Shown: one piece after another, positions 1 through 34,259 of the stretch
Layout: the number at the start of each line of letters is the position of its first letter
Numbering within the stretch: the first letter of the stretch is position 1
Origin: an uncultured delta proteobacterium
GTDB lineage: Bacteria > Desulfobacterota > Desulfomonilia > Desulfomonilales > Desulfomonilaceae
Length of the DNA: 64,000 bases
Reading direction: 5' to 3'
Assembly: GCA_963789265.1 (NCBI GenBank)
Contig: CAWBKB010000007.1
Location: forward strand, 288,001-352,000
The notes under the pieces: model-generated
Databases searched by the model: none
Seen by the model: the letters and a program-made list of their open reading frames with translations, nothing else
What the model was told of the DNA's origin: nothing
Position numbers and translations under genes: made by a program

Positions 1-162
1 GTCCATTTTGCCGCGAGGGACGGCGCTTCATTTGAGACGCTTGAACGTATTGCAGGGCTTCTGAAGTTCGCCGTGAAAGGTCCTGACGGCGCGAAAGGGA
101 TTGTTTCCGGACCTTGTCTCTGGACCGTTTTGCCGCAGTCTTCCAACTATGAATCTTCATGA
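1..162 (+). CDS. 3' end of a CDS entering from upstream, product unknown
   Basis: Frame 1 is open from base 1 to TGA at 160-162 (VHFAARDGASFETLERIAG...NYESS*), just before the next + strand gene. Confidence 0.4.
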   Translation, partial: VHFAARDGASFETLERIAGLLKFAVKGPDGAKGIVSGPCLWTVLPQSSNYESS

Positions 163-195
163 CGCGTCCACAGATCGGACAAAAAGAGCTTGATT

Positions 196-1071
196 ATGGA
201 ACTTGTTGTAGACGACCGGGCTTACAATGTTCAAGTGACTCGAAATGTCACTCTTCCGCCGGATGCGCCTCGCTTGGCCGTGATTTCGCGTCAACAAAAC
301 AAGACTGCAACAAATTTGATGCGTGTTTGTATTGATGCCGTTCGGTATTTCACTTCCGAACCTCATGAATTATGGGTAATTGACAACAATTCCCCTTTGG
401 AGAATATCCGGTGGCTCTTGGAGCAGCCCGGCATCAATATTGCTCTGAACCGAACGCAACCTCTGCCGCCGCAAGCGCGAAACGCCTTTAATGTTGAAAA
501 CGATCCGGACGCTCAGTTGACCTGGGATAGTTACGCAAATGCCATTGGATTGGAAATTGGGGCAAGACTGATCGACCAGAGATCGAATTATCTCATGTGC
601 ATGCACATGGATACCATGCCCTGCCGACCGGGATGGCTGTCTTATTTGAGATCGAAAATCAAGGACAAGGTGGCCACGGCCGGCGTTCGCATGGACAGGA
701 CAAGAACTCCAAACGGGGTCCTGCATGTTTTGGGATACATGGTCGATTTTCAGTTGTTTAAGCAGCTCGAATTGGATTTCTTTCCCGACTTGCCCCAATT
801 GGACGTGGGCGACGGGGTGACTGTGCGCTTGCGAGAGGAAGGTTACGAAGTATTTGCCTGTCCCAACACGCTTTGGGATCCGTCCATCGCGGAGAAAATA
901 CCGCCATCTTCGCCGTTAAGAGATTTTCGAGTCGATAGAGCTTTAGACGACAAAGGCAACGTGATTTTTCTGCACCTCGGTAGAGGTGTGAGAAAATCTC
1001 TCGGCGTGCATACTCAGGGAACTCCGGCCGACGAATGGCTTAGAATTGCTTATCAACATCTTCTGACTTAG
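196..1071 (+). CDS. Glycosyltransferase family 2 (GT-A fold)-like protein
   Basis: Motifs CIDAVRYFT..HELWVIDNNS, MHMD (DxD-like) and LDVGD; ATG at 196. Confidence 0.6.
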   Translation: MELVVDDRAYNVQVTRNVTLPPDAPRLAVISRQQNKTATNLMRVCIDAVRYFTSEPHELWVIDNNSPLENIRWLLEQPGINIALNRTQPLPPQARNAFNVENDPDAQLTWDSYANAIGLEIGARLIDQRSNYLMCMHMDTMPCRPGWLSYLRSKIKDKVATAGVRMDRTRTPNGVLHVLGYMVDFQLFKQLELDFFPDLPQLDVGDGVTVRLREEGYEVFACPNTLWDPSIAEKIPPSSPLRDFRVDRALDDKGNVIFLHLGRGVRKSLGVHTQGTPADEWLRIAYQHLLT

Positions 1072-25436: not shown

Positions 25437-27031
25437 GTAACCATTCACTTACGCGCGGCACGGGCAAGGCAGACCAATTCATTGGGTCCTGAAGCTCCCG
25501 TGAATAATCATTGAAGCTGCGCCTTGAGAGGGTCGAATCAAGGGGGATTGGATCGGGAAAACAAGACCGCAGAGGGATCTGCTTTCGGATTGCGGGCCAG
25601 GAGGTCGAGAGCTTCCCTGATTCGGCCCGCCACGTCTGCGCCTCTTTTATGGATGGTAGCCGCGACGGTGGCCAAGGTGCTTCTCACCTTGGCTCTCGCA
25701 TCGGTGACCGAGCCAAAGCTGACCTTCCGGGCAATCACCGATGGCCTCAGGTCTCTTTCGGCCAAGTTATTGTCCGCTGGTACCGCACGATGGTCCACCC
25801 AATGAAAGAGACGATGCTCATTTTCCCGGAATATGTCCTGGATGCGGCGAATCCCCTGGTGCCGTGCGGGCTGTGCCATAGTGGTCTTGATCTCGTCACG
25901 CAGTGCAGCCGCCCGGCGATAGAACTCATCATCAGAAATCGGTTGTGTACCAAGTCTCATGGCCAATGACAATTGGGGAGCCGCGACGGCTACAAAGGTC
26001 GATACTTCTTTGTTATCTGGGAACTCCTTCTCCAAATCTTCCACTTTCCGCAACAGATGAGCAAAACAGTACCTGAATCCGGCACGGCGCTTTGTTGTAG
26101 CCCGCATAGCGGTCGACAACGAGAGTCCCCGGGATGAAATGCTTGCCGAAGATTGCTTGGGGAACCTTGGACGAGCGGTTCTTTCCGAACCGAAAAATGC
26201 TTAGATCCGGAGTCGCAAATAGCCACACGTACCCATTCTTCCCGTCAGTCCGCCAACCCGTCTTGTCTGCATGCTTTACCGGAGCCTGTCGATACTCCTC
26301 GATCAGTCTGTCGGTTACCCCTTCAAAGAGATCGGCGCTCTTCCGAAAGAGTTTCGCAAGGCTGCCGGGCCCAATGTCCAGATACTCACAGACCCTCCCC
26401 ATTGGCATACCGTGGAGGTAGTGCATTTCCACCGCATCTGCGATGAATTGGTTACCGTAAAGGCTCTTAGGAAGCACTCCGGGGAGCTGAGGAGTGACAT
26501 TGCGACGGCAATGAGGACAATACCGTTTGGCTACCCGAAACGTGATCTTTTCCGCCTTGTGCCGAGGAGTATCTATCACGCTGCGCTCCGCCCACCCCTT
26601 CTTCTCCAAAGGAGCCCCGCACTCCAGACACAGCTCGCTGTCGGTATCCACATCCACCGTACGGTCGGCGCTGCCATTGTCATGGCTCTTGCGACCAACC
26701 CCTTTGTGACCCCCCGGCCTGGCACCTTTGGGCTTGCGCTCCTTCGCCTCCGTGCTAGGTTTGATCGGCCGCTTGGACGACGGGGTGGACGATCCGAAGA
26801 AGCCGTCTTGCTCTCTCCGCGCGTGATAGCGTAGCTTGGCCCGAAGCTGCTCGATCTCCTCTTTCAGCTCATCAATAAGACGCTGCTTCTGAAGGCAAAA
26901 TGCGCAGCCGTTGACCGCCATGGCGCACATCCTCGATCAATAATTGGCGCCATCTCTATACAACCTTCCCGATCCGAACGCGAGAAAAATCCCTCCCGCT
27001 ATCCTTCTCCCCCACAAGAGTGAATCCTTAC
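25437..27031 (-). mobile_element. IS66 family element, single-ORF (ISBst12-like) type
   Basis: TIRs GTAACCATTCAC and GTAAGGATTCAC; contains only a TnpC-type transposase; no 8-bp TSD visible. Confidence 0.85.
25538..26930 (-). pseudogene. tnpC: IS66 transposase, frameshifted near 26072
   Basis: SSTPSS, GHKG, Zn ribbon, HADKTGW (usually DETG), VVDRYAGY, CFAHLLR and NNLAERDLRPSVIARKVSFG. Confidence 0.88.
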
Positions 27032-27241: not shown

Positions 27242-28096
27242 TTAAAATCCGAAAAGACTTCTGGCGTTTCCATCGAAGACGGCTTCTTGCTCTGCTTGAT
27301 CGTAACCAGCCTTCACTAGGAGATTCTCGATTTTTGAGAATTCGGTACCATGAACGAACCAGGGCCAGTCAGTCCCGAAGAGAATGTGTGAAGAGCCGTG
27401 AATTCGCAATAGCTCGACAAACTGCTCCTCTTTAAGCGTGTGAGCGGCGTTTGAGGTGTCCAGATATAGATTCGAATCGGGAGGCAAATTTTTGCGAATT
27501 TCATCAAAATCAGCAAGCAGCCCTCCCATGTGAGCACCGATAAAATTAATGCCCTGATGCCGATTAATCAATTGTGAGAGTTTGAACGGCGTAGTGAGAA
27601 AATTGGGGTTTGCGTCAAGATAAGTGTCCGCCCGAGCAAATGTGTCAAAGACCGCTACCGGCCGTATGTTTCGAGTTTGGGCTAATCGCCCCACTTCGGT
27701 CAACATGACTTCGACTTCCGGCGAGGACAAGTCGAATTTTTGGGAAAAGCTGGAAAACTTGAACCCGGTGATCCCCAGGTCAAAGATGCGTGAGATTTCA
27801 TGGGAAAGACCTTTCATCATCGGATGTAGAGTGGCAAGCGTCCGAAGCCGAGGCAACACTCTCGTGAATCCGATGAATCGGTCATTCTCGCGACGTATTC
27901 GGTCCGGTCCGGTAGAGGGAAGCAACAGACAGACTTCAAACCCATTTTCTTCCGCCGATTGCTCCAAGGCAACGGGTTCAAGTCGCTTCAACGCATCCCA
28001 CACATTCAGGTGTAATTGTTCCACTAGAGGCGGCCTGGCCTTCATATTGTCCACAATCCGGGTTGTGAAGATATGGCAGTGTGAATCAATCGGCAT
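27242..28096 (-). CDS. Amidohydrolase family 2 protein
   Basis: Motifs IDSHCH, AHMGG, LYLDTS and ILFGTDWPW. Confidence 0.9.
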   Translation of the reverse strand: MPIDSHCHIFTTRIVDNMKARPPLVEQLHLNVWDALKRLEPVALEQSAEENGFEVCLLLPSTGPDRIRRENDRFIGFTRVLPRLRTLATLHPMMKGLSHEISRIFDLGITGFKFSSFSQKFDLSSPEVEVMLTEVGRLAQTRNIRPVAVFDTFARADTYLDANPNFLTTPFKLSQLINRHQGINFIGAHMGGLLADFDEIRKNLPPDSNLYLDTSNAAHTLKEEQFVELLRIHGSSHILFGTDWPWFVHGTEFSKIENLLVKAGYDQAEQEAVFDGNARSLFGF

Positions 28097-28439: not shown

Positions 28440-29561
28440 TCAGGGCAAGTTTTTGGTACTTTTCAAGATGCTTTCTATTGCAGCGAAGACCCGTTTATAG
28501 GTTTCACAGTACGGATCCTTATGATGGGGGCTTTCTTGAGCACTCATTGCTCTAACAGGGCAACCACCCGCACATAGAGCAAAATATTCACAGTTCAAGC
28601 AGTCCGCGTCTCTGACAAGGTTGGATATCCTACCGGCCAACTCCAGCCGGTTCGATGACCGAAAGATCTCATCCAGGCCCTCGCAGTCCAACACGTTCCC
28701 AAAATTCTTCTCAGGATACGAACTGACCCAGCAATCGCATTGCCCGACATCGCCGCTCGGATCTATGCAGAAGAAACCATTCACGCAATTGGAACTGAAA
28801 AAACAGGGTACACGCGAACCAAACCCTGTGCTCATTCGTTCGATGATCGACCTAAATGGGGCGATGTTTACACCGGAATCGCGCGACAGGCAGACATCCA
28901 ACAGTCCGACAAGAAAGTCGCCCAATTGATCAGCGTCTAGCAGCAAATCGCCTAGAAAACAGGCGGCAGGCCCTCCAGGGAAAGGTGTATTTACCTGAAA
29001 ATGTGTCAGTCCCACCTCCTCCATGAAATACCGGTAGAATTCCGAAGGGGGCCTGGCTAGGCTTTCGCGGTTGGGAACCGTGATGACCGATACCTCGATA
29101 CCTTTGGACGACGCCTGCTCGTAATTCCTTTTCCAGAGTTCGTTATATCGATTGCCGCTGAGATCTCGGTACCGCCTGTATACGTTGGGGTAGTCCAAGG
29201 AAGACCCGACAAAGCCCCCGAAGAGCTGAAAAATGACCTCATGCCACTGTGAAGTATAATTCATCAGATTGGTCTGCAGGTAGTGAACCACATCAAGGTC
29301 GTGTTCCGCCATGACGCGGCTTATCAGTTCACCGGCTCGTACACACCACCCTGGCGATAGAACCGTGACTTCTCCTCCCTGCCAATAGACTTCGACGTTT
29401 TTCACCCCGCATCCTGCAAGGTACGTGGAGATGCGAGTGAAAATTAGAGATAGATCTTCCAGCGACATCCTGCCGGGTCTTTTGGTTTCGAAACAATATG
29501 AGCACTGGGCATTACACTCGTAGGTGGGGAGAAATATGATAGAAACTTGAGGCCCGAACAT
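28440..29561 (-). CDS. Radical SAM/SPASM protein, probable peptide maturase
   Basis: CNAQCSYC, WQGGE and QTNL; SPASM CFFSSNC..GDVGQCDC..CLNCEYFALCAGGCP..DPYC. Confidence 0.93.
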   Translation of the reverse strand: MFGPQVSIIFLPTYECNAQCSYCFETKRPGRMSLEDLSLIFTRISTYLAGCGVKNVEVYWQGGEVTVLSPGWCVRAGELISRVMAEHDLDVVHYLQTNLMNYTSQWHEVIFQLFGGFVGSSLDYPNVYRRYRDLSGNRYNELWKRNYEQASSKGIEVSVITVPNRESLARPPSEFYRYFMEEVGLTHFQVNTPFPGGPAACFLGDLLLDADQLGDFLVGLLDVCLSRDSGVNIAPFRSIIERMSTGFGSRVPCFFSSNCVNGFFCIDPSGDVGQCDCWVSSYPEKNFGNVLDCEGLDEIFRSSNRLELAGRISNLVRDADCLNCEYFALCAGGCPVRAMSAQESPHHKDPYCETYKRVFAAIESILKSTKNLP

Positions 29562-29564
29562 GGC

Positions 29565-30437
29565 TCAATTATTGTCCTCTTGGGCCCTGCTCAAATCGTT
29601 GGCAAGATTTGCTGCTTCCTCTTTTATTATTTTGAATACATCCAAAAATGGAGAGCATCGAAAACTGCTATCAACGAAACGGAGGTAACCGCCGCAAAGG
29701 TCGAAACTCTCGCACCAGGAACAGGAGGACTCTCCAAGATAGAGGGCTTTTCTCGGATTCTGCAAGAATTCATAGAGTGGCGATTCCACATCCAAGGTAA
29801 GCCTTCCGTCAAATCTGCCAAAAAACTGTTTCGCAAGAGCGAACCTGCCCGAAGCGGAGACATTTCCATTCTCATCAATGTAGAGTATTCGCTCTGGGCT
29901 CTCCGGGTATATATTCACCAGAGGTGAATCGGCCCCCTGAACCCTGGAGACGAGCATTGAATGAAAGAATTCAACAGGAACCTGCAGGTACTTTGAGTGG
30001 AGATAGTAGTCCAGAACAGAGATTAAATCCGCGCAGTCGATTGGCCCATCGAGTCCCAATACGACTGGGACACCGGCAGAAGTGACCATCCTGACTGCGC
30101 CAAACAGGCCCTTGGACGCATCGATCATGACGCCCAAATCAAAGTGTTCTCCCATCCACGTGTGTGTGTAAATCTCCGAGGCGTTCGAAGCGGGTAGCTT
30201 CCAAAGAAGGGGCAGTCCTACGGGCAAGGAACCCAAAGGTGAGACATCCAAACCACCGCCGTGCAACTCCACGCCACACACCCGGTCTCCGAGGGCTTCG
30301 CAGGCGTTTACAAGATCTTCCACATTACTGGATCGAATTACCACCGACTGAAAATCGGCAATACCGGCGAAGTTCGCAGCTAAATTGACCAAGATGCCAT
30401 CATTCACAGTGTAGCAGGCCCATAGCTCGTCTTGCAA
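29565..30437 (-). CDS. Degenerate radical SAM/SPASM-like partner protein (no CxxxCxxC)
   Basis: LYIDENGNVS hairpin and CSWCESFDLCGGY..C tail; 3 nt from the rSAM gene; start uncertain (TTG 30437 or GTG 30407). Confidence 0.75.
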   Translation of the reverse strand: MQDELWACYTVNDGILVNLAANFAGIADFQSVVIRSSNVEDLVNACEALGDRVCGVELHGGGLDVSPLGSLPVGLPLLWKLPASNASEIYTHTWMGEHFDLGVMIDASKGLFGAVRMVTSAGVPVVLGLDGPIDCADLISVLDYYLHSKYLQVPVEFFHSMLVSRVQGADSPLVNIYPESPERILYIDENGNVSASGRFALAKQFFGRFDGRLTLDVESPLYEFLQNPRKALYLGESSCSWCESFDLCGGYLRFVDSSFRCSPFLDVFKIIKEEAANLANDLSRAQEDNN

Positions 30438-30446
30438 GCGTGGAAG

Positions 30447-31061
30447 TTAGTTGCCATCCGGAACACCCCCGTTGCCCCAGACCCGACAGTTTCCGCCATT
30501 GCCCCAAACCCTACAGATTCCCCCGTTGCCCCAGACTCGACAAGTGGTGTTGCCCCAGCCTGCTCCCCTATTGGCCCAAGCCCCACCGGCATTGCCCCAC
30601 CCACCACCGGTGTTGCCCCAAGCACGACCGGAATTCGTCCACGCTCGCCCGGAGTTGCTCCATGCGTGGTGATGCTCTCTATGTCTTTCGTGCTCGTGAT
30701 GTTCTTTCTTCGTCTCGTGTTTCTTCCCAGGTTTGTGGTCCTTCTTGTGCTCTTTTTTATGTTCGTGTCCCTTCTTTTGTTCCGCTTTGTGCTGCTTCTT
30801 CGGGTGACCGCCTTTATGCTCGCCGCCTTTCTTGGCCAGGAATTGGGGTGCATCCGCTCCGGTCCCAAGTTCTTGACCTGTCGTTCCGGACCGACTGCCG
30901 AGATCTTCGGGGTTTCGAAGGGCTCCCAAAACCTCGAGCGGTCCCACCGAGACTGCACCGATTACCACGCAGGACCATTTCCCCAAGGCCCTCAGAAACT
31001 CCCGCCTGTGCAGGCTGGACTCATAATCTTCGTCCCTCGGCCGGTCCAATTGATCGCTCAT
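30447..31061 (-). CDS. Putative RiPP precursor with Tat-like leader, His/Lys-rich spacer and nine W-x-N repeats
   Basis: HRREFLRALGKWS plus hydrophobic stretch; KKxH repeats; WSN, WTN, WGN, WGN, WAN, WGN, WGN, WGN, WGN; RBS GGGGGA before ATG 31061. Confidence 0.85.
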   Translation of the reverse strand: MSDQLDRPRDEDYESSLHRREFLRALGKWSCVVIGAVSVGPLEVLGALRNPEDLGSRSGTTGQELGTGADAPQFLAKKGGEHKGGHPKKQHKAEQKKGHEHKKEHKKDHKPGKKHETKKEHHEHERHREHHHAWSNSGRAWTNSGRAWGNTGGGWGNAGGAWANRGAGWGNTTCRVWGNGGICRVWGNGGNCRVWGNGGVPDGN

Positions 31062-31297
31062 GTTATCCCCCAAAAACGAAGTCACGAGTATCACCCGAAA
31101 TAACCGATACTCACTCATCTTTAAAATCGCGGTCCATCACAGTTGAAGTTGGCATGAATCGAATTTGGAATGCAAGAAAAAAGGATATTCACCAACGAAA
31201 ATTCCAAGAATTTTTAACAACGTGAATTTGGTTTCGTCCAAACGAATAACCGGGCTGGTTGAAATAATATACCAAAATTACGGAGGGAGGACCGGAT

Positions 31298-32356
31298 ATG
31301 AAAGGGCTACCAGCCTATTTTCTTATCATAGCAACAGTTCTTGCTGTTTGTGGCGGAGCCACATGGGCGGCCGGCAAACGAGGGGGCGGAGGACATCATG
31401 CCGGTGGCCGAAAAGCTGTTCGTCATGCCATGCGCCATATACAGAAGCCTAAAGCGGTACTCCGGCAACATCCCCACCGCCGCGCCCTTCGCGTTGCACA
31501 GCATCGGAAAGAAATGGCGCATCACCCTCGCGTTAAGCCTCGAATTGCAAGAGAAGTTCACATGCACCCGAAGGGGATTAACCAGGGCGGACCCGTCCGC
31601 GGATTGCACAGTCCTCACAACACCGTGAAGCCTACCAAACCGGCGAGACTGGCTAGCGTGGCTAAGAATGTTCGAACCCAGTTCACCGCACGCCACAGAC
31701 ACGTATTCACTCCACGTTGGTGGCAAAATCGCTCTATCACCAACGTAACCAATGTCAGGTGGTTTTCTCATTGGTGGGCACATCCCGGTCCTTATTACTG
31801 GTGGAGACGATGCAGTTGGGTCGCGCTAACGGGATGGTTGCCGGGCGTGGTCTGGTCGGCACCGACCATCTACGATTACGGAAGCAACATCTATTATCAA
31901 GATGATGGTGTGTATATTAACAGCATATGGCAGTATTCAGCGGATCAGTACTATCAGCAGGCCCGGACCATCGCTTTGAATGTACCGCAAGGCGTCTCGG
32001 AGAAATCGGAATGGATGCCACTGGGAGTCTTCGCCGTGCAGCGTCCGAATGCGGACTCTCCCCACGCGATGCTGCAACTCGCGATAAGTAAAGAAGGTGC
32101 AATTGCCGGAACCTTTTACAATTTGGCCACCGAAAAGATCCGACCGGTTCATGGGTCGGTGGACAAGCAGACCCAACGAGTTGCGTGGACTATGGGCAAT
32201 GGTAATGGTGGAAGGATGATTATGGAGACAGGGGTGAACAATCTTACACAGAACCAAACGCAGGTGCTGGTGCATCTTGGACCGAACAATACTAAGAAAT
32301 GGTTTCTGGTGCGGATGGAAGCACCCAACTCCAGTTCTGTCGCAAGCAAACGATGA
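31298..32356 (+). CDS. Secreted protein with basic His/Arg-rich N-terminus, Trp-rich middle and conserved C-terminal beta domain
   Basis: Signal peptide; YDYGSNIYY; EWMPLGVFA..LQLAISKEGAIAGTFYN..GSVDKQTQRVAW..METGVNNLT; RBS GGAGG. Confidence 0.8.
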   Translation: MKGLPAYFLIIATVLAVCGGATWAAGKRGGGGHHAGGRKAVRHAMRHIQKPKAVLRQHPHRRALRVAQHRKEMAHHPRVKPRIAREVHMHPKGINQGGPVRGLHSPHNTVKPTKPARLASVAKNVRTQFTARHRHVFTPRWWQNRSITNVTNVRWFSHWWAHPGPYYWWRRCSWVALTGWLPGVVWSAPTIYDYGSNIYYQDDGVYINSIWQYSADQYYQQARTIALNVPQGVSEKSEWMPLGVFAVQRPNADSPHAMLQLAISKEGAIAGTFYNLATEKIRPVHGSVDKQTQRVAWTMGNGNGGRMIMETGVNNLTQNQTQVLVHLGPNNTKKWFLVRMEAPNSSSVASKR

Positions 32357-33131: not shown

Positions 33132-34259
33132 ATGAAAAGGGTTTTGGTAATGCTTATGATCTCGTGCTTCGCTGTCGCTCTAGTTGCGCTCTTGCTACCA
33201 CAAGAGGGGCTTGCATGCACGAGTTTCCAGGTCAAGGCAAATGACGGGACGGTAGTCATCGGACGTTCCAACGAATTCGGCATAGATGCCCATTCGCAGA
33301 TAGTGTTCGAGCCCGCGGGTAAGGAGTTCATGAGCAAAACCCCTGATGGCAAGGCCGGTAATAGCTGGACGACCCGATACGCATTCCTGGGTATAAACGG
33401 CCTCGGGCTTGTAGAGAGTTTCGGGGACGGCATGAACGAGGCTGGCCTCTCAGTGGAGGGACTTTTCTTTGAGGAAAGTAGGTATGAAGCGGTGGACCAG
33501 AAGGACACCCCCAAAGCGGTCAGTAGCAATGACTTCATATCATGGATTTTGGGCAATTTCGCGACAATCGATGATCTGAAACGAGAATTGCCCAATGTCC
33601 GTGTTTGGGGAGAGATGGTTGAGCAACTCGGCGGGCCGCTGCCGCTACATTTTGTAGTTCATGATGCCTCGGGAAAGTGCCTGGTCATCGAGTTTATAAG
33701 CGGAGAAAAGAAGGTCTATGATAATCCCATAGGAGTTATGACCAACATGCCCGAATTACCGTGGCAGATCACTAATCTCCGAAACTACCTAAACTTGAAC
33801 ACTTTCATTCCAAAGGCAAAGGACTTCAACGGAGTCTCGATCAAGCCCACGGGTACGGGCAGCGGTTGGCTCGGCGTGCCCGGAGATTGGAGCCCTCCTT
33901 CGCGCTTCGTTCGAATCGCCTACCTCGTGAACGCCTGTTCTCCGCCTAAGGATGGTAAAGGGGCGCTCAATTTAGCCAAGCATATACTCAATACGGTTGA
34001 TATTGCCCTGAACAGTGTTGAAGCCAGCATCAAGGCTAAGGGCAGTACCGACTCCGCAGCAAAAGAGTATACCCAGTGGTCGGTCCTGCTCGATCTGACC
34101 AATAGAGTCATGTATTACTACTCTTATAACGACATGAACGTGAAATCACTCGATCTTAGAAAGATGGCTGCCAGCAAGAGTCAGAAGGTCAAGGTCCTAC
34201 CAATTTCTGGAGAGTTCTCTGCCACGGACATGACCGATAAGCTCACGGATCTGAAGTAA
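33132..34259 (+). CDS. Secreted choloylglycine hydrolase/penicillin V acylase family Ntn-hydrolase (C59)
   Basis: Signal peptide followed by catalytic CTSF; GRSNEF, DGMNEAGL, VMTNMP and PGDWSPPSRFVR. Confidence 0.93.
   Translation: MKRVLVMLMISCFAVALVALLLPQEGLACTSFQVKANDGTVVIGRSNEFGIDAHSQIVFEPAGKEFMSKTPDGKAGNSWTTRYAFLGINGLGLVESFGDGMNEAGLSVEGLFFEESRYEAVDQKDTPKAVSSNDFISWILGNFATIDDLKRELPNVRVWGEMVEQLGGPLPLHFVVHDASGKCLVIEFISGEKKVYDNPIGVMTNMPELPWQITNLRNYLNLNTFIPKAKDFNGVSIKPTGTGSGWLGVPGDWSPPSRFVRIAYLVNACSPPKDGKGALNLAKHILNTVDIALNSVEASIKAKGSTDSAAKEYTQWSVLLDLTNRVMYYYSYNDMNVKSLDLRKMAASKSQKVKVLPISGEFSATDMTDKLTDLK

Follow-up and report, generated by a model that had tools for sequence, protein, structure and literature searches.

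The closest described relatives of the system reported here are the triceptides, ribosomally made peptides with post-translational modifications (RiPPs) whose maturases (GrrM/OscB, XyeB/XncB, FxsB, YhhB and ChlB) are radical S-adenosylmethionine (rSAM) enzymes with a SPASM domain and no RiPP recognition element (RRE), and whose precursors have aromatic-x-x motifs repeated within Gly-rich sequence. In the portion of PMC11002830 that covers these enzymes, W-x-N is a substrate of OscB and XncB: the bond made by XncB runs from Trp C6 to the beta carbon of Arg or Asn and that made by OscB from Trp C7 to the same carbon of Asn or Asp, and the Asn lies two residues on from the Trp. A three-gene cassette with these features was analyzed in a 64,000-nt stretch (the window; GenBank assembly GCA_963789265.1, contig CAWBKB010000007.1, positions 288,001 to 352,000) of an uncultured member of the Desulfomonilaceae. 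The cassette encodes a W-x-N repeat peptide, a pseudo-rSAM/SPASM partner protein and an rSAM/SPASM enzyme, and the three genes very likely form a precursor and maturase system. It is triceptide-like in its substrate and probably in its chemistry, and differs from the described triceptides by a distinct enzyme clade for which all three-residue cyclophane models score under cut-off, a leader resembling a twin-arginine translocation (Tat) signal, an obligate pseudo-enzyme partner, and no gene for processing or export (protease or transporter). The product is probably an exported, ring-crosslinked peptide.

Conservation was assessed with 277 encoded relatives of the rSAM enzyme in contigs representing one genome per species, of which the best 80 loci were kept. 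A homologue of the partner lies directly upstream of the rSAM gene in 76 of the 80, and the four loci without it (L001, L003, L027 and L077) have the rSAM gene at a contig end. Sequence reaching 500 nt or more beyond the partner on its upstream side was available at 72 loci, and 69 of these have a same-strand open reading frame (ORF) with at least three W-x-N motifs. The arrangement by which triceptide systems are recognized, an aromatic-x-x precursor beside an rSAM/SPASM maturase, was thus found at these 69 loci, and with nine W-x-N motifs in the window. Beyond the trio no further neighbor gene is conserved, the best other cluster occurring in 13 of the 80 loci, so the cassette lacks a dedicated protease, transporter or immunity gene; the absence of a peptidase and an exporter noted for the window in the initial annotation holds across the family. 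No sulfatase gene was found among the conserved neighbors in the 80 loci.

The cassette was found in hundreds of bacterial species and at least six phyla. By record title the hosts include Verrucomicrobiota, several orders of Desulfobacterota, Acidobacteriota, Chromatiaceae, Thiothrix, Accumulibacter, Geobacter, Rokubacteria and Hydrogenedentes. Proteins of Desulfonema ishimotonii, Lamprocystis purpurea and Thiorhodococcus mannitoliphagus belong to the rSAM clade. The anaerobic host that the initial annotation had given as a distinguishing trait is not one of the family overall, since members also occur in metagenome-assembled genomes (MAGs) of Verrucomicrobiota and Acidobacteriota. In a large protein collection, 124 rSAM homologues with 34-54% identity were present among the matches listed, with generic names or none. 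A profile search with the partner against 1.84 billion representatives returned 601 clusters at 50% identity, of which 182 had E values of 1e-30 or less. Every name shown for homologues of the partner was 'hypothetical protein', many rows were nameless, and none had a Pfam domain. Source names shown for the cassette proteins were all generic ('radical SAM protein' or 'hypothetical protein').

The window precursor contains nine W-x-N motifs, the number given in the initial annotation, and nine of its ten Trp residues fall within them (binomial p 8e-11 from the protein's own Asn content, a value that overstates the enrichment because the repeats are tandem DNA duplicates). The motif is better supported by conservation across loci than by this figure. 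Among the 73 precursor ORFs collected, 444 of 527 core Trp residues are in W-x-N, with a median of six motifs per precursor (range 3-16). Of the 444 motifs, 366 have I, A or V in the middle position. The Asn is followed by R in 274 and by G in 102, with S, H and K also found there; the window precursor has S, T, A, R or G at this site. Core composition is about 36% G, 12.5% R and 12% W. The C-terminal string quoted earlier for the window precursor is present, but the protein itself ends in ...WGNGGVPDGN. The GrrA/OscA1 precursor model TIGR04260 matched the window precursor at 18.5 bits (E 0.0023), under its cut-off of 31, and 15 of 33 precursors matched it weakly at E up to 1 (best E 5e-7).

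At the N-terminus, alignment A3 of the precursors has M1, R20, W29 and S30 invariant and R19, F22 and L23 nearly so. The leader RRxFLxxLGKWS given in the initial annotation recurs, as the motif [RK]R-x-[FYL]-[LF]-x-x-[LMIV]-x-[KR]-W-[ST], in 71 of the 73 precursor ORFs, the other two being truncated. The arginine pair in the 71 is RR in 68, KR in 2 and SS in 1. In the relatives, 20-26 residues separate K-W-S from the first W-x-N: a stretch rich in Gly, Ala, Val and Ile, then a polar end, mostly A-x-A, which the first W-x-N directly adjoins. The A-x-A end is clear in most of them (for example ...AEAG-W and ...ARAGA-W), including simpler precursors of the L049 and L013 type.

Precursor number and motif type vary among the relatives. 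At L011 (2300-4196; UASB14, Moduliflexus-like) four tandem precursor genes lie upstream of a single partner/rSAM pair, and their cores differ, with WVN/WIN, WSN/WAN, WGN and mixed motifs. The precursors of MAGs from Desulfomonilaceae and Desulfomonilales (L043, 3238-3933, and L044, 3598-4071) have up to 16 motifs, with polar or aromatic middle residues (WHN, WSN, WKN, WFN, WYN) in place of the usual I, A or V.

The rSAM enzyme was confirmed to be complete, with the triad C16-x3-C20-x2-C23, a YWQGGEV motif, and a SPASM domain at 49.2 bits against the TIGR04085 cut-off of 27. Pfam scores were slightly short of gathering (Radical_SAM 24.5 vs 29.5; SPASM 18 vs 21.5), and no additional N-terminal RRE domain is present. 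In the C-terminal half, Cys 253, 259, 275, 277, 321, 324, 330, 334 and 352 are invariant in 21 family members and are all kept in the window copy. Comparison with hidden Markov models (HMMs), including the GrrM, XyeB, FxsB and anaerobic sulfatase-maturating enzyme (anSME) models named in the initial annotation, left the enzyme short of every cut-off. The anSME model TIGR03942 scored highest (120.9 bits; cut-off 349.45), then DynA (114.2; 450), TIGR04083 (113.2; 300), DarE (99.4; 650), DarW (95.5; 650), GrrM/OscB TIGR04261 (64.5; 310), AmcB (56.1; 425), YhhB (36.5; 445), FxsB (25.3; 370) and XyeB (23.5; 450). The 21 family members gave the same model order, with best E values of 2e-43 for anSME, 7.5e-43 for DynA, 6.1e-36 for DarW and only 2.4e-26 for GrrM, which 20 of the 21 matched. 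As all curated models are far under their cut-offs, the clade is a separate, uncurated branch of anSME-like rSAM/SPASM enzymes.

The nearest described enzyme by sequence and architecture is anSME (for example anSMEcpe, PDB 4K36-4K39). It was the sole strong sequence match in the PDB, and the rSAM family profile aligned with anSMEcpe over the full length (E 2.7e-36), with the rSAM triad, the Cys sets of both auxiliary clusters and the C-D motif in register. The cassette differs from anSME in a score of about one third of the cut-off, in a substrate that would be a W-x-N repeat peptide rather than a sulfatase, and in the paired pseudo-enzyme. DarE, DarW and DynA, the next-best matches, are likewise Trp-crosslinking rSAM/SPASM enzymes, and the cassette scores lie far below their cut-offs of 450-650. 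Darobactin and dynobactin systems have a single short core per precursor and ABC-type export in the cluster; the cassette has 3-16 repeats and no ABC-type export.

The second protein, described in the initial annotation as SPASM-like, proved to have the whole rSAM/SPASM fold. It has no CxxxCxxC, and in alignment A2 of 35 members no N-terminal Cys is conserved; C239, C242, C248 and C261 (CxxCx5Cx12C) are invariant, Y90, P154 and P181 are also kept, and the conserved motifs include YLH...PVEFFHS. The AlphaFold2 model (pLDDT 91.2) superposed best, over 259 aa, on the triceptide synthase ChlB (9gm3; Foldseek and VIA-align, Z 15.1, root-mean-square deviation 3.4 A), then on anSMEcpe (Z 14.7), and also on CteB and TigE, residues 13-283 being covered. 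With hhalign the partner aligned to the rSAM family at 89% probability (E 2.2e-6), and its four Cys fell on C321, C324, C330 and C352 of the rSAM enzyme, which by analogy with anSME we take to be the ligands of the second auxiliary cluster. The shared fold and the four Cys aligned on SPASM Cys identify the partner as a paralogue of the rSAM enzyme, one in which the SAM cluster and the first auxiliary site are gone and one cluster is probably kept. A pairing of this kind, of an rSAM enzyme with a relative lacking the SAM cluster, is shared with the pseudo-SAM/SPASM family TIGR04347 and the GeoRSP SPASM protein TIGR04304, families for which we know of no biochemical function. The cassette partner differs from both: it matched neither model at E up to 0.1, nor any Pfam or NCBIfam family, and the two models were matched only, and weakly, by the SPASM half of the rSAM enzyme itself.

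Five partner-family proteins (P0292, P0301, P0309, P0343 and P0272) are predicted as fusions, in either order, with a methyltransferase domain or a different type of rSAM domain, and may be true fusions or artifacts of read-through in gene calling. The fusions were considered as a sign of partner-enzyme interaction and dropped, the rSAM domains of P0301 and P0272, the two checked, being unlike the cassette enzyme (BLASTP E 0.28 and 0.009, short pieces); this domain appears to be a second rSAM type.

The mechanism we propose, which has a slight balance of probability in its favor when taken as a whole, is that Trp-Asn cyclophanes would be made in the cytoplasm and the product exported by Tat and cleaved by signal peptidase. 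The precursor would be synthesized with an N-terminal twin-arginine-type signal doubling as the recognition (leader) region. The anSME-like rSAM/SPASM enzyme would then, in the cytoplasm, take a hydrogen from the Asn beta carbon and join this atom to the indole ring of the upstream Trp, two residues away, giving a three-residue cyclophane at each W-x-N (up to nine rings in the window precursor and a median of six in relatives). It would act with the co-translated partner, which retains one auxiliary-type four-Cys site and whose job would most likely be to hold or present the leader or to relay electrons. The rigid, modified product would leave by the general Tat pathway and be freed by signal peptidase, and the use of this housekeeping machinery would explain the missing dedicated protease and transporter. 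Maturation before export is known from anSME, which modifies sulfatases in the cytoplasm prior to their export.

For the chemistry, one Trp-Asn cyclophane per motif is proposed because the invariant i/i+2 pair fits that of XncB and OscB, and by this analogy Trp-to-Asn cyclophane formation is somewhat favored. The initial annotation of W-x-N as a cyclophane substrate is backed by PMC11002830, in the portion covering these enzymes. Some facts count against the proposal. The enzyme lies nearer to anSME than to the GrrM, XyeB and FxsB models, so its chemistry is not readable from family membership; and L019, L022 and L030 have partner and rSAM genes with no W-x-N precursor adjacent or elsewhere in the fetched stretch, the precursor there perhaps being encoded in trans or of another type. 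An appreciable but lesser likelihood belongs to the same enzyme and substrate with a different outcome, namely an ether or C-N crosslink of the DarE/DynA type, a Trp link to the residue after the Asn, or a ringless modification of Asn or Trp. The best peptide-maturase models are those for DynA, DarE and DarW and not for three-residue cyclophane formation; according to the same part of PMC11002830, DarE makes C-O besides C-C bonds and dynobactin has a C-C and a C-N cross-link. The predominance of Arg after the Asn also means that a W-x-N-R unit is conserved. Yet the invariant positions are exactly i and i+2, the geometry of all characterized triceptides, a Trp-Asn beta-carbon pair is among those described in that source, and the +3 position varies both in the family and within the window precursor.

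It is very improbable that the enzyme is a true sulfatase maturase forming formylglycine, or acts on an unrelated protein, with the Gly-rich neighbor an ordinary secreted low-complexity protein. The anSME model and anSMEcpe are its top HMM and PDB matches, and the WQGGE and C-D motifs are common to both enzymes. The initial annotation had accordingly named clustering with true anSMEs, together with homologues lacking W-x-N neighbors, as what would speak against a RiPP system; instead the score is well under the anSME cut-off, all 21 members match that model weakly, the precursor and partner accompany the enzyme across phyla at the frequencies given above, and its conserved neighbors include no sulfatase.

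The twin-arginine leader claimed for the window precursor is present as HRREFLR and recurs in the relatives. The N-terminus looks like a Tat signal, and in the relatives cleavage would free exactly the repeat region; export by Tat with cleavage seems fairly probable on these features. The assignment rests on the motif because the Tat profile models are nearly silent: among 33 precursors TIGR01409 matched one (E 0.058), PF10518 TAT_signal one (E 0.47) and formate_TAT five (best 0.013), and the window precursor matched none of the three, models so short that they rarely reach significance. Also unfavorable to Tat export in the window copy are a hydrophobic stretch that ends ...EVLGALRNPED with no clear A-x-A, and the roughly 85 residues between it and the first W-x-N. 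These points, with the acidic N-regions and the invariant K-W-S, which is not within the Tat consensus, lend something to a less probable account in which the N-terminus is a RiPP leader or membrane anchor that resembles a Tat signal and the product stays in the cytoplasm, is tethered to the membrane or is exported otherwise. That account touches the export step only and is compatible with the proposed chemistry. It has to meet the fact that 70 of 71 precursors retain RR or KR with x-F-L after it. Next comes a hydrophobic stretch, rich in Gly and Ala, whose 13-15 residues are too few for a typical anchor, with a polar A-x-A end before the first repeat, an arrangement that is that of a signal peptide; the missing protease and transporter in the 80 loci are also hard to account for otherwise. 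TatC was found over cut-off in the window's own genome and in all five other hosts tested; this test is weak, as 11 of 14 control genomes have TatC too.

Leader binding by the partner is a tentative assignment; its role may be leader binding, electron relay or both. A complex prediction of rSAM enzyme, partner and precursor residues 1-60 scored 0.57, and 0.47 with the rSAM enzyme replaced, which is evidence neither for nor against binding. A more speculative extension, which we regard as rather doubtful, is that the Tat signal itself serves as the RiPP leader: the partner would read RRxFLxxLGKWS, hold the precursor and hand it over to the rSAM enzyme, and only fully cyclized peptide would be released to Tat and trimmed by the housekeeping signal peptidase. 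TorD, DmsD and NapD are dedicated cytoplasmic proteins that recognize a twin-arginine leader until maturation is complete, and in this doubtful extension the partner would act like such Tat proofreading chaperones holding redox-enzyme precursors. The likeness is in possible logic only; the partner fold is unrelated to theirs, and leader binding is hypothetical here. If true, this would be a new RiPP logic in which recognition, quality control, export and leader removal are borrowed from general secretion, with a dead paralogue as adaptor.

With cyclophane formation as the preferred reading, the cassette would extend the cyclophane RiPPs by a large, easily recognized branch whose peptides bear 3-16 rings, and would provide a three-gene test bed for substrate recognition by RRE-less rSAM maturases and for Tat carriage of heavily crosslinked peptides. 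A Gly/Arg/Trp-rich composition is typical of many membrane-active peptides, and a biological role of such products in the periplasm or outside the cell would be worth finding. Neither NCBIfam nor Pfam has a curated family for any of the three proteins (rSAM clade, partner, precursor); an existing curated family is what the initial annotation said would reduce novelty. No paper linking a twin-arginine leader with an rSAM/SPASM RiPP was found in a search that did not extend to the triceptide similarity networks (JACS 2022; Nature Chemistry 2020), in which the clade may already stand as a cluster without a name. None of six peptide strings from core or leader occurred in literature text, and the supplements of PMC10288494 and PMC11499958 held none of the searched host names or motifs.

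The coordinates of the cassette and its surroundings are collected in Table 1. The three linked minus-strand ORFs reported initially are all present. An alternative in-frame ATG at 31118, further upstream, would extend the precursor to 223 aa. The partner stop and the rSAM start codon are 3 nt apart, as first reported; the gap of about 9 nt reported between precursor and partner holds with the TTG start of the partner and becomes about 39 nt with the GTG start 30 nt inside, which matches the same protein as called publicly (P0231, 280 aa).

Table 1. Features of the cassette, its precursor and the flanking genes. Positions are in window coordinates unless given as residues of the precursor.
Feature	Position	Strand	Description
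Precursor gene	30447..31061	-	204 aa; ATG at 31061 with GGGGGA ahead of it
Partner gene (pseudo-rSAM/SPASM)	29565..30437	-	290 aa from TTG at 30437, or 280 aa from GTG near 30407
rSAM/SPASM gene (putative maturase)	28440..29561	-	373 aa; CxxxCxxC and SPASM domain
Core-encoding repeat region, overall	30466..30662	-	
Tandem DNA repeats, period 27 nt	30466-30542	-	2.9 copies; encode CRVWGNGG units
Tandem DNA repeats, period 21 nt	30570-30662	-	3-4 copies; encode G-x-A-W-x-N units
Precursor, acidic N-region	residues 1-18		
Precursor, Tat-like motif	residues 19-30		R19-R20-E-F-L-R-A-L-G-K-W29-S30; His just before R19
Precursor, hydrophobic stretch	residues 31-47		
Precursor, Lys/His/Glu-rich spacer	after the hydrophobic stretch; counts for residues 61 to 133		17 K, 15 H, 10 E
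Precursor, core	residues ~133-204		nine W-x-N: six in Gly-rich 7-aa repeats, three in CRVWGNGG repeats
IS66-family transposase	25538-26930	-	ORFs of 305 and 193 aa that overlap (covering 1-152 and 145-282 of the profile)
Amidohydro_2 protein	27242-28096	-	E 2.2e-16; downstream flank of cassette
Divergent ORF	31298-32356	+	352 aa
Choloylglycine-hydrolase-family protein	33132-34259	+	PF02275, E 4.7e-60

The window copy stands apart within its family. No close orthologue of this stand-alone three-gene copy was found in any collection searched, a point against the proposal in that selection on this copy escapes measurement. The best relatives of its rSAM enzyme are a public protein at 54% identity, genome contigs at 55-57% and, among metagenome contigs, one match at 35%; 31 relative genomes, the window's own included, have only a fused paralogue type or more distant members. 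The rSAM enzyme and partner keep every family-invariant residue, and on that account the copy looks functional. Six repeats of the precursor core are Gly-rich A/G-W-x-N units of the kind seen in other Desulfobacterota, and the other three, CRVWGNGG, are of the paralogue type. The long charged spacer that had been put forward as a trait of the system is present here but peculiar to this copy and not family-wide; the window copy is a lineage-specific paralogue with a unique His/Lys/Glu spacer.

A paralogous four-gene system is encoded on another contig of the same genome (L082, 3600-8212, minus strand). Its precursor (125 aa) has four CRVWGN motifs and the same RRSFLTSLGKWS leader, its partner (291 aa) is 45% identical to the window partner, in a 691-aa protein the cassette rSAM, at 57% identity, is joined with another rSAM domain, and an extra rSAM/SPASM protein of 362 aa matches the DynA model at 138.8 bits. 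With a Cys in every repeat and additional rSAM domains, this type may form further crosslinks. The four-gene form was also found in L004, L007 and L008 and in six of six same-genus genomes, whose fused paralogues are 54-57% identical to the window rSAM enzyme, with frames of 671-714 aa in five and a frame split by a stop in the sixth.

The flanking amidohydrolase and choloylglycine hydrolase were considered as system members and rejected because neither is conserved next to the cassette in other loci. The latter belongs to the N-terminal nucleophile (Ntn) proteins and starts with a signal-like segment. The broken IS66 transposase, probably a frameshifted pseudogene, lies downstream of the rSAM gene at a distance of about 1.5 kb. 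The divergent 352-aa ORF, which had no Pfam or NCBIfam match, adjoins the His-rich precursor and has an N-terminal hydrophobic segment followed by a strongly basic, His/Arg/Lys-rich stretch.

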